IMG/VR virus record: IMGVR_UViG_2880389630_000005
Origin: a virus
Taxonomy: Duplodnaviria; Heunggongvirae; Uroviricota; Caudoviricetes
Strand: one strand, 5' to 3'
Length of the DNA stretch: 64,000 nucleotides
The position numbers were made by a program, and so were the translations under genes. A model generated the notes under the pieces. The model did not search any database and was not told the DNA's origin. It worked only from the letters and a program-made list of their open reading frames with translations. How positions within the stretch are numbered: position 1 is the stretch's first letter; each line of letters opens with the position of its first letter. Of this stretch, positions 28,084 to 35,336 are shown in pieces.

Positions 28084-28308
28084 TCAACTTTTCACTTCTT
28101 TAAAGTGCCTACCTTCTACAGTTGCTCTGAGATAAAAATTCTTATCTTTACCGTTTAGTGCTTCCCAAGCATCAACAATGCACTTATTACAGATGTGGAC
28201 TTCTCGATAACCAATAGCTTTCCTGTCAATATTAGTGAACATAACAGCTTCTTTATCTGTCAATGTGGATGCATGACAGAAGTCGCAATCTATATAAGAT
28301 ACCTTCAT
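28084..28308 (-). CDS. Cys-rich small protein (putative zinc ribbon) in arc-ant operon
   Basis: 74 aa with CDFC...CNKC; sits between arc and ant, overlapping the arc stop. Confidence 0.4.
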   Translation of the reverse strand: MKVSYIDCDFCHASTLTDKEAVMFTNIDRKAIGYREVHICNKCIVDAWEALNGKDKNFYLRATVEGRHFKEVKS

Positions 28309-28463: not shown

Positions 28464-28479
28464 ATTCACCTCACAATAT

Positions 28480-28530
28480 AGGTCCACCGTGGACCTATTG
28501 AGAATATAGTAGAGTGCTTCTATCATGTCA
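28480..28530. promoter_or_regulatory. immI control region: Mnt operator and Arc operator, divergent Pant/Pmnt
   Basis: 17-bp palindrome AGGTCCACCGTGGACCT (Mnt operator-like) and ATAGTAGAGTGCTTCTATCAT (Arc operator-like) between arc and mnt. Confidence 0.7.
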
Positions 28531-28553
28531 ATACACTAACTTGGGGTGATGGC

Positions 28554-28808
28554 ATGGCTAGAGACGATCCGCACTTTAACTTCCGTATGCCTTTGGAAGT
28601 AAGAGAAAAATTGAAATTAAGAGCAGAGGCTAACGGAAGGTCAATGAACTCTGAGTTATTACAAATCGTTCAGGATGCTCTCTCAAAGCCATCATCAATT
28701 GTAGGCTATCGAGACGAAGCTGAGCGAGTCGCGGATGAGCAATCTAACGTTGTTAAGAAGATGGTCTTTGAAACGCTGAAAAATATTTATAGCAAAAGTA
28801 AGTTATAG
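28554..28808 (+). CDS. mnt: Mnt repressor
   Basis: 84 aa; MARDDPHFNFRMP...GRSMNSELLQIVQDALSKP matches P22 Mnt. Confidence 0.85.
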   Translation: MARDDPHFNFRMPLEVREKLKLRAEANGRSMNSELLQIVQDALSKPSSIVGYRDEAERVADEQSNVVKKMVFETLKNIYSKSKL

Positions 28809-28857: not shown

Positions 28858-29577
28858 ATGAAAAAAAGCAATGGACTCACATTAAAACTTGACGGAACCA
28901 CCCCTGGCCAGCTGTCAATGGCTAAGTTGGTCAAGTATATGTCTGCTCTCGTAGATCTATACGGTTCTGCAGATTCTGTTCACTTCGACTGTGTAAGTGA
29001 AGGATCGGCTGACTTAAATGCATGGGTCGATAATGATATTTGTTATAACGCTGTCATAGCAAGGGCCTCTCTCTCAGCCAAAGAGAAATCACCCGCGTAT
29101 CAAAAAATTGTTAATTTACTGGAACATGATGGTTTTTCAGCGAAACTACTCGGACGAAACCACTCAACCATTATCGCATTCCCGCGAGTAAAAAAGGAGC
29201 CAATCCCTTTACTCATAACAAAAACGTCAGAAGTTCAAGGAAGGCTATACAGTGTTGGTGGAAAAGACAACTCAATACCTGTGCGTATTGAGGGAGCCAA
29301 CGGTGAAACATTCAAGTGCGAGGCAACCCCTGATTTGGCGGCAGCTCTTGGGTCCCATCTATTCAAATATATTAGAGTTAAAGGAGATGGGTGCTGGGAA
29401 AAAAAGAACAACAAATGGGAGCTAAAGAAACTAAAAATAACTTCATTTGTATTGCTCAAAAAATCATCACTCAAGGATGCTATTAATGCTATCAAGCAAG
29501 TTCCTGGAGATCAGTGGTCCGAGGAACGCGATGTTGATTCAATCCTTAGGACTCTGAGGAAGATAAATTGCGAGTAA
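28858..29577 (+). CDS. hypothetical protein, first gene of accessory cassette
   Basis: 239 aa; AT-rich; no motif recognised; co-directional with mnt; 3' end overlaps next ORF by 10 nt. Confidence 0.5.
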   Translation: MKKSNGLTLKLDGTTPGQLSMAKLVKYMSALVDLYGSADSVHFDCVSEGSADLNAWVDNDICYNAVIARASLSAKEKSPAYQKIVNLLEHDGFSAKLLGRNHSTIIAFPRVKKEPIPLLITKTSEVQGRLYSVGGKDNSIPVRIEGANGETFKCEATPDLAAALGSHLFKYIRVKGDGCWEKKNNKWELKKLKITSFVLLKKSSLKDAINAIKQVPGDQWSEERDVDSILRTLRKINCE

Positions 29578-30116
29578 TTTTAGATACCAATATTCTGGTA
29601 TACCTACTATCAGATATAGAACACGATTATAGATTATCTGACCCTATACTTGGTTCTGAGATTCCAGATGCCAAAAGAAGAGCAGAAGCTCTTGTTGATC
29701 GAATAGATAACAAGAACGGGACAATCATCGTTCCAACTCCTGTATTGGCGGAGTTTTTAGTTGGAATCCATAAAGATTACCAACAAGAAAAACTGAATGT
29801 TATCAAATCGTTATCGTGCTTCGAGACTGTATCATTTGATGAGTTGGCTGCTATTGAATGCGCATCGATACCAACATTAAAAGAATTAAGGAAAATTAGC
29901 ACAGAAGGTACAGCAAATAAAATTAAGTTTGACAGACAAATAATAGCAATTGCAAGAGCAATTAATGCTGACGAGGTATGGACTCATGATAAGGGAGTGT
30001 TTGAGCGTTGCAAAAGTCTCAATATTCCTGTGTTCACATTGTCATCAATAGAACCAATTCCGGTTCAAAGTCTCATGGAGTTCTTACACGATTCAGACGA
30101 TCAGAGATTACACTAA
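29568..30116 (+). CDS. PIN-domain nuclease-like protein (VapC-like fold)
   Basis: 182 aa; N-terminal ILDTNIL, Glu in VLAEF, and FDRQIIAIARA...THDKGVF resemble the PIN acidic-residue signature. Confidence 0.55.
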   Translation: MRVILDTNILVYLLSDIEHDYRLSDPILGSEIPDAKRRAEALVDRIDNKNGTIIVPTPVLAEFLVGIHKDYQQEKLNVIKSLSCFETVSFDELAAIECASIPTLKELRKISTEGTANKIKFDRQIIAIARAINADEVWTHDKGVFERCKSLNIPVFTLSSIEPIPVQSLMEFLHDSDDQRLH

Positions 30117-30243
30117 AATATAATTTTTATGCATCCGTGATAATTACATCCGTCACGGATACATAAAGCTATAGCCAAAAGTGGACAAACCTTTATCTCA
30201 CTCCAAACCATCTGGTATCCTGCGTAAAACTAAGGAGGTTGGT

Positions 30244-30666
30244 GTGTTTGGTATATTAACGAGAAGCAAGATAAAAAAATTAAGGGCAGAACTCGCCGAA
30301 ACACAAAAACTGGCTTCACATTTTTACAAAATGAAATACGACGCTGAAGAGCGTGCATTTGTTGAGTTATGCGATTTATCTATTCGTATGGGAGTAGAGC
30401 CAGATGTAGCGGCAAAAACCCAACAAGGCATTGATATACTTGCAGATGTTGTTTTAAACAGGCAATATGCGTTTTATCTAAACGAGAAGGCCATTCAGAT
30501 TTACTCTCAAATCTTCCTCCTAGAAAAAAGAAGAGGAACTCACGATCGAGAAGAGTGGTTAAATGAAGTTGTTAAAAAATCTGGCTGGGAAGTTGTTTCA
30601 TCAGAGCTACCTCTTATTTGTGCTGATTTAATCGAAGAGGCAAAAGAGCGCCTATCCGATGGCTAA
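30244..30666 (+). CDS. hypothetical protein, third gene of accessory cassette
   Basis: About 140 aa from GTG preceded by AAGGAGG RBS (ORF track's first start is 30181); AT-rich. Confidence 0.45.
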   Translation: MFGILTRSKIKKLRAELAETQKLASHFYKMKYDAEERAFVELCDLSIRMGVEPDVAAKTQQGIDILADVVLNRQYAFYLNEKAIQIYSQIFLLEKRRGTHDREEWLNEVVKKSGWEVVSSELPLICADLIEEAKERLSDG

Positions 30667-30690: not shown

Positions 30691-32799
30691 TTACTCCCGC
30701 TCCATTCCGCTTAGCGATGCCACAATCCCACCCCTCGCTAAGCGCTGAAACTCTTCGTTTCCGACGGTATCACGTATCGCTTTTACAGCAGCTTTATTTG
30801 CCATAAATCTGCGTTCAGCCGCCGCTAATGCACCATCACTTGCCCCAACCTTAACTGCCTTTGTTGCCTCTTGAACAGCCTTTTCAATAGCGTAACGACC
30901 ACTGCGGGATGCAGCTAACTTTTCTATCGTCCCTTTAGCTATAGATCCAGAAACAGCCCCCACAACACCGCCAACAATCCCTCCACCAGTGGTACCAACA
31001 ATAGCCCCTGATGTTGAATTGCCTATTGCATTGAGAACTGTCATGACAGCTTTTGGCAGTCCTTGCTCAAGAGAGTTAATTGCCGGTATAGAGCGCCCAG
31101 TATGCTCTACATATCGCAGTGGTCTGGTTGCTGCTCTGGCAAGGTCGCTGTATGCCCTAGCAATCTTACCCATTTCTGGCGAGTGCTTGCTAATGGCAGT
31201 AATATTCTGCGGCGTAAGGATCGACGCTATATGGAATACGCCAGCAGACTCTGATTTACCGCCACGCACCCCTTGCGATACCGCATCTTGTAATATTGAT
31301 GCAATTGCTGGAGATCGCTCAGACTCTGGCAGTGCGCCAATAATCTGATGAAACTTTCCTGTCCCACTTTTTGATGAATTTTGCAAGGCTTTAATACCAT
31401 CAGTGACTAACTGATCAGTTGCAAGGTTTCTAAACGCTGCTTCAGCCTGTTCTTGTGCTGTAAATCTTGCTTTTGACAGATCATTAGCTTTTTGCCAGTC
31501 ATCAAGAAAACCGCCATTTTGAGCCATTATGCGCATATCTTCCGTTGCTGCATCACGAAGCTCCGCCATGCGCCTTGCCGTATTTGCCTCACCAGACCTT
31601 ATATACTTCTGCTCAGCGTCAGCAAGTTTACTTCGCCATGCCTTCATGGCATCAAACGTGATTCCTTTTTTACCAGTTTTAGCATAAGCAGATGCAAATT
31701 GTTTCATCTCAGGAGTTAGCGGCATACCAGCCAAAATATCACCCTGAATTGTAGCGTTCAGGTTTGACATTCTGGCCTTTGCGTCAGGCATCGTGGAGCG
31801 GACGCTATCCCATGCTGCCTTTTCTGAGTTCTTCATTTTATCAATACTTGCTAAAACCCTTTGTTTTATGGCTGCACTTTTTTCTGATGCAGATCCAGCC
31901 TCAGCACCAAGTTCATCAAGTGCTGAGTGGAATTTCGACTGTATTTCACTAAAAGCCCTAGTATGTGCATCCTGAACAATTCCTGGTTCGGATGCCAATA
32001 TCCCTTCGGCTTGTGCAATTCCACGACTTCCAGATCGCATTCCTGGTGTTAATGCGTTTATATCAATTCCAGCAGACTCAGCCGCTTTTGCTACATCTTC
32101 GGACACATTAGCGGCCTGACTGGCAATTGACTGACGCCCAGCACCTGACTTTGCCATCCTGGAAACATCATTAGCAGAATTCAGTGCTGCACCACCAAGA
32201 GCCTGTGAAACCCTTGGAGCAATAACGCGCCCGACACCTGAAAGAACGCCTTGAGCACCAATATTGATACCACCGTTAATGGCAGCATTTTGTGCAAAGT
32301 CGCCCTCCTGATTTGCAGCATCAGCAAGAGAACCTGCAATCATGTTTCCTGCGGAACCGATATCTTCAGCGAGCTTTGCTGGCGCTCCAGCAGCTTTTGC
32401 CGCTGTGCCAATTGGCAGGAGATACCCACCAATTGTTTCACCGGCTTGCGCGTAAGGGTCTGTCGGTCGATCGACTGGACGATAGACATCATCCAAAACC
32501 TTGGGGCCACCAAGCCCCTGGCTGATTGCATTAATCAGACTTGCGCCACCCTGCAATACGTCAAATGGTATGTTTACCAGACCACGACCAGCCTGTTCTG
32601 CAATTTGCCCTGCACTTTGACCACCAGTGAGCCAGCCAGTGGCTTTTCCTACCAGAGATTGTTCTTCTGGCTGCGATTGGTTTTGAGTGGATTGATCACC
32701 AGAAGACAGCATCTGAGCAATGCGACGTGCTCCCTCAGTATCACCGGCAGCATCAGCATTCCTTAACGCCGTCATCAACTGTTCGCGACTATAGGCCAT
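30691..32799 (-). CDS. ejection/DNA-transfer protein (P22 gp16-like)
   Basis: 702 aa, Ala/Gly-rich; position after gp20-like gene at end of the ejection protein cluster. Confidence 0.6.
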
Positions 32800-33346
32800 T
32801 ACTGCCCTCCGAGATATTTATTAATCAAGTCATCATCAGAAAGCTGCTGTTGAGACGGTTGTATGTCCTTCCCGTATTTCTGTTGCATACGTTTCTGAGC
32901 CATCTCAGTGGTTTTTATGATTGTTTTGATAGCTGCTCTGGCTGATTTTTCAGACTGATTTGGGGACAAACTACCAATAGCATCCATTACCTTTTGCCCC
33001 TCGGCATTACTTAAAGCCCCCATCCCTTTCATCTGCTGAATGCCAGATAAGAATCCCTGAGATTTCAGTGTGTCAACCAGAGTTTCTGTATCAGCAGCCT
33101 CTGTTCCTGGAATGAATCTACTCGATAGTGGGTTTAGGTTTGTTCCGAAATATCCCGTGAATCCTGGGCTATTAAGAACTTTTGTAGCCGTCTCTATCGT
33201 TCTGGAGAGATTATCCATTCCAGAGTTGTACGCATCGGCCTTATCTCGCTTTGCCTGCTCCATAGCTTGCTGATTGAAGTGGTTTACTGAATTTGGCCAC
33301 CTGAACAGAGGTGATATGCTCACCTCAGAACAACACAGGTGCCATA

Positions 33347-34494
<1,148 letters not shown>

Positions 34495-35336
34495 CTCGGT
34501 GGCCAGTTTTTGTTGACCACTTCAGATTCTGCAATCTCTTGTCCTGCAATTCAGCAAGTTTTAAGGCATTAGTTTCATTTGCGATGAGTCTGTCGTATTT
34601 CTTGTCCTCTAATTCCATCCGACGAAGATTGACATTTTGTTGCGCAATATTGTTGCTTGCCCACCCTCTGGCATTTGTCATGTCATTATTACGGATTGTT
34701 TCGTTAATTCTTTGCTGCTCCTGCTGGCGACCAACCATCTTGTCCTGATAATCCAGCATTTTATCCGGACCAACAGCCCCTAGCGTCATAGTAGTCAGCA
34801 TGTGTGATAGCTGCTCTGGATTCTGGATACCTGTCTGAATCATCCAGTCAGCATTCGCCCCCACGCGATTTAACCTGTCCTTGTTGTCAGTAATGAATTT
34901 ACTGTAGGCTTCCGGTCCCTGAGAAAGAGCGACGTTAGCCCTCATGGCTAAATCGCCCATATCGTTGCGTTGCTGATCATTAAGACCGGAAAACGCCTGT
35001 TGTGCCTGTGCAACAAACGCTGGATTTTCCTGGGCAAACTTAAATAGTCCCGATGGATCACCAGAAGCCCATGCATCAGCGTGAACCTTATTGAACGCAC
35101 TAATAGCTTTCTGTTGCTGTTCCTGCTTATAAATATCAGCAACTCCAGCCAGACCACGTAACGCGGTCAGACCAACGTTATTTGCACCTGATCGAGCCAG
35201 TTCATTGTTTTCGCGGATCAGACCAAGCGTTGCGTTAATGTCGCTTGCCTTTGGCGCATTCTCGTTTTGCGCACCAATGCCAGCCAGAAAACCACCAGAA
35301 TTAATACCCTGTTGCCACGTAGCCATTGATTACCCC

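Follow-up and report, generated by a model that had tools for sequence, protein, structure and literature searches.

Genes between mnt and the gp16-like gene

The stretch analysed here (64,000 nucleotides, hereafter the window; IMG/VR record IMGVR_UViG_2880389630_000005) carries a P22-like prophage of Escherichia coli that is adjoined by dacD and sbmC, and its region of interest is 100% identical in ST131-type and other clinical strains. The genes follow each other in the order tailspike (−), ant (−), an open reading frame (ORF) of 74 amino acids (−), arc (−), two facing promoters, mnt (+), three + strand genes designated here A, B and C, and a gp16-like ejection protein gene (−). The three genes, A (28858..29577, 239 amino acids), B (29568..30116, 182 amino acids) and C (30244..30666, 140 amino acids), fill the interval between mnt and the gp16-like gene, and on sequence grounds they are genuine genes rather than chance ORFs. 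The corresponding order in P22 is arc (−), mnt (+), ORF59a (+), sieA (+) and gene 16 (−), with A, B and C standing in the slot of ORF59a and sieA. The initial annotation was right to place three + strand frames at a sieA-equivalent locus. It had also joined all three into one defence cassette, and this part did not hold: the unit consists of two translationally coupled genes, A and B.

Gene B (+ strand) encodes a predicted PIN-domain nuclease that is identical to RefSeq WP_001263856.1; its start codon is TTG, with GAGGA 6-7 nt 5' of it. The PIN-like signature noted initially was recovered in a hidden Markov model search, where B matched PF01850 (PIN) over residues 36-147 with 40.8 bits against a gathering cut-off of 23.6 (E 4e-10); partial matches to PIN_12 and PIN_4 begin at residue 3. 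An alignment of 26 relatives, with identity down to 30%, shows D6, E62, E97, D122, D141 and the FDRQI motif to be invariant, and the acidic set that holds the catalytic metal in PIN domains (Asp after strand 1, Glu, Asp, Asp) corresponds to D6, E62, D122 and D141. About 20 residues are inserted after strand 1. B belongs to phrog_21691, a PHROG family of no assigned function; many of its homologues carry the NCBI name VapC, and B itself does not reach the NCBIfam VapC cut-offs (27.1 versus 140 bits for NF047863, 19.9 versus 73.6 for TIGR00028, 14.8 versus 80 for NF047959). Searches of the PDB by single sequence or family profile found no relative of B. Judged by its sequence, B is a divergent member of the PIN fold and part of a conserved family.

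Gene A (+ strand) encodes the partner of B. It has no match in Pfam, NCBIfam, PADLOC or the PDB sequences, and nine diverse members of its family are like it in this; matches to USP7 and Kelch proteins in PDB sequence searches with single sequences and family profiles are noise, and the only family recovered is phrog_19868, a PHROG of no assigned function. Searched with a profile, 1.84 billion representative proteins yielded 1,553 relatives at E ≤1e-3 and 298 at E ≤1e-30 (counts of representative clusters at 50% identity); almost all of the top 150 are 230-260 amino acids long, with full-length alignment. The AlphaFold2 model (30-sequence alignment, pLDDT 83) predicts a ferredoxin-like or RRM-like N-terminal domain (residues 1-110), an OB-fold (about 118-199) and a C-terminal tail (200-239). 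Most of the invariant residues lie together in the OB domain, with the motif QG(R/K)LYxVGGKD..PV..EG..E...CE, while the tail, modelled as low-confidence helices, is probably disordered and yet conserved, G217, W220 and R234 being invariant. The predicted folds are typical of single-stranded nucleic-acid binders. A Foldseek search of the model against BFVD gave only local matches to OB and single-stranded DNA-binding (SSB) proteins with TM <0.3, and no full-length analogue. That A is not a VapB, as had been suspected from its size, agrees with the failure of Pfam and NCBIfam to find in it any small DNA-binding antitoxin domain, be it ribbon-helix-helix (RHH), AbrB, Phd/YefM or helix-turn-helix (HTH). 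Assignment of A as a DUF5830 partner of the DS-5 type, a system considered below, was likewise rejected, DUF5830 being undetectable in A and in the nine family members.

The two genes overlap by 10 nt, and the coupling proposed on this ground is matched by their conservation as a unit. A is directly followed by B on the same strand, overlapping or abutting it, at all 58 loci first gathered, which come from E. coli, Pseudomonas aeruginosa, Pectobacterium, Providencia, Marinobacterium, an environmental bacterium and 45 IMG/VR viral contigs. A further scan of a genome collection with strict peptide patterns gave 13 loci in species-representative genomes, and because the patterns were strict these serve as examples of context and not as statistics; the order is kept in 12 of them, and in 70 of 71 loci overall, across Enterobacterales, Pseudomonas, Marinobacter and environmental bacteria. 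The exception is a Marinobacter metagenome-assembled genome (locus L076, 8716-10065), where B is cut to about 30 codons and A is intact. A gene with HTH_3 and Peptidase_M78 (ImmA/IrrE-like) domains follows the truncated PIN gene there, and the locus may be decayed or remodelled. Even PIN genes whose products are only 30-35% identical to B are preceded by clear homologues of A (hhalign probability 99.7-99.9%). A hairpin with 15-nt arms and a 12-nt loop (30126..30167, + strand; dG -20.7 kcal/mol, z -5.06) begins 10 nt after the B stop codon and lacks a T-run. Homology between prophages extends through it, which assigns it to the A-B block, and it is a possible 3' end (terminator), RNA stabiliser or protein-binding site of the A-B transcript.

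Genomic settings of the pair and its neighbours

The viral contigs place the pair mostly behind repressor genes. Among the 45, A-B lies 49 bp downstream of mnt in 10, downstream of a cI-type repressor gene (HTH_3 plus Peptidase_S24, with a divergent Cro) in 19 and downstream of a short HTH_3 repressor gene in 4; in 5 others it adjoins a DinI-like gene at the contig end, and in 2 it is near an integrase gene. The repressor-linked cases total 33 of 45, with A-B co-oriented with the repressor gene in every one, and since the pair is both co-oriented with and directly downstream of the repressor gene it holds the position that rexAB has in lambda. The same order is seen in an isolated phage, Pseudomonas phage Ostro (OR683408), which carries a Cro-like gene (−), a CI-like gene (+), an A-like gene and a gene annotated 'nuclease'. 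A DNA search of deposited phages matched only mnt.

Outside such prophages, A-B was found in P4-like primase elements of Hafnia and Pantoea coffeiphila, beside a PLD nuclease and a type I HsdR in Marinobacter manganoxydans, between genes for a DinG-like helicase and an SLFN-g3 helicase in M. persicus, adjoining an Mrr-type nuclease gene in Marinobacterium, with Fic and insertion sequence (IS) elements in Pectobacterium, and in small chromosomal islets. An environmental bacterium (L010-L012, 3251-4528) carries it inside the dcw cluster, between an ftsI-like penicillin-binding protein gene and murE, an unexpected site for a module with a nuclease. The pair is mobile among phages, satellites and defence islands. 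One prophage, in Pantoea latae (NZ_MWUE01000022.1; L069 and L072, also L023 and L039), holds two paralogous pairs about 12 kb apart, 70% and 57% identical to A of the window; one stands directly after a cI-type repressor gene and the other beside the tail-tip J gene.

In the window itself, the gene immediately 5' of A is the lysogenic repressor gene mnt (28554..28808, + strand), which encodes an Arc-like RHH domain and an Mnt C-terminal domain (PF03869, E 6e-27; PF11423, E 6e-13) and has 85% DNA identity to P22 mnt. Co-direction with mnt at a distance of about 50 bp had been noted from the outset, and 49 bp indeed separate the stop of mnt (28808) from the start of A (28858), with no terminator-like site among them. 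The supposition that the genes are transcribed from Pmnt gained a candidate promoter 5' of mnt, a Pmnt-like sigma-70 element (28498..28526, + strand; TTGAGA-17-TATCAT, 10/12 consensus matches) that is the likely source of an mnt-A-B transcript in the lysogen. Facing it is a Pant-like promoter (28503..28531, − strand; TTGACA-17-TATATT, 11/12 consensus matches) that drives arc and ant. A perfect palindrome, ATAGGTCCAC-G-GTGGACCTAT (28478..28498, no strand assigned; 100% complementary), is situated between the start of arc and the -10 box of the Pant-like promoter; it resembles the Mnt operator of P22, and we take it to be a putative operator of this kind. The impression that the block is AT-rich was only partly correct: the GC contents of A (0.419), B (0.368) and C (0.388) are below those of the gp16-like gene (0.486) and the whole window (0.491); comparably low values are found, however, in mnt (0.40), ant (0.43) and the tailspike gene (0.40).

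The slot between mnt and the gp16-like gene (30691..32799, − strand), which forms its right-hand edge, proved on comparison of P22-like prophages to be a variable cargo site with other toxin and immunity genes. P22 carries sieA there, and sister prophages in E. coli carry a gene for a Rap1a/Tai immunity protein, ClpP-like and Panacea-domain genes, or a transthyretin-like gene. Such company lends support to a defence or toxin-antitoxin (TA)-like role for A-B. In E. coli APEC E19035 (L064, 4545-5900) the slot holds a gene for a hypothetical protein of 199 amino acids that overlaps a YafO-family toxin gene, followed by a gene of 109 amino acids; the layout parallels A-B in having a large partner of no known family upstream of the toxin.

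Gene C (30244..30666, + strand) most likely starts with GTG, 5 nt downstream of the Shine-Dalgarno sequence AAGGAGG, and RefSeq uses the same start; an alternative start at 30181 was rejected, as homology with an independent copy of C begins only about 35 nt before the GTG at 30244. No functional family label for C came from Pfam, PADLOC, NCBIfam or PHROGs, and a PDB sequence search gave nothing usable. The distribution of C departs from that of the pair. A-B is present at ≥99% identity in about 45 of 5,426 complete E. coli genomes, and C accompanies it in only 19; the remainder (about 26 of about 45) have a gene of 75 amino acids or nothing at the position of C, and homology between A-B prophages breaks where C begins. 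Relatives of C amount to three protein clusters among 5.8 billion, all from E. coli, and a copy with 95% identity is carried by further P22-like prophages in which A-B is absent (L059-L062, 3952-5498). The two copies differ by 21 synonymous and 6 non-synonymous codons, which marks C as a real gene under purifying selection. It is an orphan gene limited to P22-like prophages of E. coli and lies outside the A-B module. In L059-L062 the neighbour of C is a P63C-domain gene of 322 amino acids on the opposite strand, which stands where mnt and A-B would otherwise lie; the region of arc and mnt appears to have been replaced.

Two other features of the window deserve mention. The 74-amino-acid ORF between ant and arc (28084-28308, − strand), which overlaps arc by 4 nt and has no P22 gene at its position, encodes a CxxC...CxxC pattern with a weak, below-cut-off match to a ClpX-type zinc finger (E 0.0015). 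An IS3-family element (ISEc52-like; ORFs 33311-33649 and 33676-34494) interrupts the gp20-like ejection gene within 32799-35326, leaving the pieces 32799-33323 and 34370-35326, and the remnant is a pseudogene in RefSeq. Because of this split, the prophage is probably defective for infectious virions; it still keeps the immI region and the A-B pair.

Possible function and alternative explanations

We lean, by a small measure, towards reading A-B as a TA-like PIN defence expressed by the lysogen, in which A restrains B until superinfection frees it, RNA is cut and the infection is aborted. Expression of the pair would take place in the lysogen, in this prophage probably from Pmnt along with mnt. 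B, with its conserved PIN catalytic residues, would be the effector, a metal-dependent PIN (ribo)nuclease; A, to which it is genetically linked, would be its obligate regulatory partner, presumably in a complex with B. The tail of A, with its invariant Trp and Arg, most likely fills the acidic pocket of B and silences it, by analogy with the tails of VapB and FitA; in FitA, Arg68 inserts into the acidic pocket of FitB. A superinfection cue would then release or activate B; this might be an intermediate of phage nucleic acid, a phage protein binding to the predicted OB domain, or the disappearance of A once the host is shut off. Once free, B may cut tRNA, rRNA or mRNA, aborting the infection and protecting the lysogen population. 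From context we infer the anti-phage role itself: the pair follows repressor genes in 33 of the 45 viral contigs and elsewhere stands beside restriction, PLD and SLFN-helicase genes.

Several observations weigh against this reading. A protein search found relatives in only 2 of 50,697 deposited phage genomes, both distant Pseudomonas phages, and neither A nor B fits any known defence model. The insertion between ftsI and murE is as compatible with a selfish TA module as with a defence system. The folds predicted for A, OB and ferredoxin-like, are generic, and its binding of a ligand is putative. Finally, A need not be an antitoxin, because deleting the partner in the DS-5 system unleashed no toxicity.

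DS-5, found with DefensePredictor, consists of an E. coli PIN ribonuclease and a DUF5830/AcrIF4-like partner and was validated against phage Bas60; catalytic mutants of its PIN protein lose defence, and deletion of the partner abolishes defence without toxicity (PMC13092281). This precedent of a PIN protein with an unrelated partner raises the option that A-B, too, is a sensor-effector system and not a TA module, with B inactive alone and A recruiting or activating it on phage nucleic acid, in which case deletion of A would abolish defence without toxicity. The size of A, far beyond any VapB, its two folds of nucleic-acid-binding type and its lack of RHH, AbrB, Phd and HTH antitoxin domains would all suit such a scheme. 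We nevertheless hold it to be unlikely, given that an upstream overlapping partner with a disordered but conserved C-terminal tail has the classic traits of an antitoxin, that one locus has lost B and kept A, and that A contains no detectable DUF5830. It seems quite improbable that the pair serves addiction alone, retaining a prophage or island by post-segregational killing with no anti-phage role. The TA-like layout, the VapC names given by NCBI to many B homologues, and the spread of the pair over unrelated elements and chromosomal islets, the dcw cluster among them, are what such a stabilisation module would show, but steady placement in immunity regions behind repressors and near exclusion cargo sites is the pattern of a lysogen-expressed defence. 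The pair also occurs in islands of restriction and nuclease genes, and a machine-learning prediction, weak but independent, scores B as a defence protein. Addiction and defence are in any case not mutually exclusive. A system that requires all three genes, or one that acts in the lytic cycle by degrading host RNA or in DNA ejection, is very unlikely: the three genes do lie side by side on one strand with comparably low GC, and their site adjoins ejection-protein genes, but C is missing or replaced in most E. coli genomes with A-B, occurs elsewhere without the pair and has relatives in E. coli only, whereas A-B is found in many genera, and the homology between prophages stops at the start of C. 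A lytic function sits poorly with the presence of A-B outside phages and with its location within the lysogenic operon, divergent from the structural genes.

A bolder proposal is possible, though we regard it as doubtful. A-B might constitute a new and widespread two-component immune family (at least 1,500 clusters at 50% identity) in which A, through its OB-fold and RRM-like domain, senses a phage nucleic-acid intermediate or SSB-like protein and licenses the PIN RNase, and which several temperate lineages have independently placed in their repressor operons as a soluble counterpart of RexAB and SieA. Should A-B be a defence system, a well-populated family has been missed by PADLOC, Pfam and NCBIfam annotation, and more than 1,500 clusters of so far uncharacterised proteins would acquire a function. 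The post-repressor slot, behind mnt in P22-like phages and behind cI in lambdoid and Pseudomonas phages, would then be seen to recruit soluble nuclease immunity besides membrane exclusion. The OB-fold partner offers a concrete hypothesis on the link between a PIN toxin and the sensing of infection, the main open question of TA-type defences. As the host looks like an ST131-type clinical E. coli, the pair may also affect the host range of phage therapy in about 1% of E. coli genomes. If A-B is only an addiction module, it would still represent a new antitoxin architecture for PIN toxins.

Relation to known systems

The initial annotation could not assign the genes to a named system, and neither could the present searches: A, B and C had no match at E ≤1 in PADLOC-DB v2.0.0, which includes the PD-T4, PD-T7, PD-Lambda and PDC candidates, and distant homologues of A and B gave only marginal PIN-level matches (PDC-S70 and PDC-M11A, E 0.001-0.05). 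Literature searches for an OB-fold and PIN pair in defence, and for genes downstream of repressors, found no description of A-B; neither of the two RefSeq accessions is mentioned in main texts, and the study of SieA does not discuss PIN cargo (PMC10883804). The one earlier trace is Table S10 of DefensePredictor, where WP_001263856.1, that is B, is listed among uncharacterised 'predicted novel defense genes' with a mean log-odds of 6.81 (range 3.95-8.01) and no homology to known defence proteins, a machine-learning prediction only (PMC13092281).

One close resemblance is to VapBC and FitAB. As in these systems, the effector is a PIN protein with a site of four acidic residues, and the C-terminus of the partner is a flexible tail carrying a conserved Arg; the module is mobile on prophages and islands. 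The gene order is that of VapBC, with the partner first and the genes overlapping or abutting (10 nt here; this order in 70 of 71 loci). However, A is a protein of 239 amino acids with ferredoxin-like and OB domains, whereas the antitoxins of VapBC have 70-90 amino acids and are of the RHH, AbrB, Phd or HTH type, and B differs from VapC in its insertion of about 20 residues, its scores far under the NCBIfam cut-offs and the absence of a PDB sequence relative.

DS-5, the one validated PIN-plus-partner system that was found, is likewise a two-gene pair of E. coli in which a PIN protein has a partner unlike an antitoxin. Yet, going by its published description, it differs from A-B: its partner has 166 amino acids and contains DUF5830, for which A (239 amino acids) gave no match, and the catalytic residues of its PIN protein (WP_021513009.1, compared by description) are D7 and E44, as against D6 and E62 in B. 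To judge from the operon length of 1,648 bp, the DS-5 PIN protein should also be much larger than B.

The likeness to RexAB and SieA is one of position. Like rexAB, A-B comprises two cargo genes that immediately follow a maintenance repressor gene in the same orientation, 19 of its loci being linked to cI; A and B have no sequence or fold kinship with RexAB, PIN being the only Pfam family matched. RexB is a membrane channel, in contrast to A and B, which lack hydrophobic segments. With sieA the pair shares the mnt–gene 16 slot, the nature of prophage cargo and, presumably, expression in the lysogen. SieA itself, a hydrophobic protein of the inner membrane, prevents the injection of DNA (PMC10883804). 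BLASTP of A, B and C against SieA and ORF59a gave nothing meaningful (best E 5.5), and the maximum Kyte-Doolittle(19) values are 0.75-1.19 for the three proteins versus 2.6 for SieA; all three are predicted to be soluble. Exclusion at the membrane or blocking of injection in the manner of SieA was rejected as unlikely, all three proteins being devoid of hydrophobic segments and unlike SieA in sequence. The pair has the position of lysogeny-operon cargo ('moron'), being co-oriented with mnt, 49 bp behind it and with no terminator-like site intervening. PIN-based TA and abortive-infection modules are already known as prophage cargo; what A-B adds is the partner family of A, the architecture of this partner and the systematic link of the pair to repressor genes.

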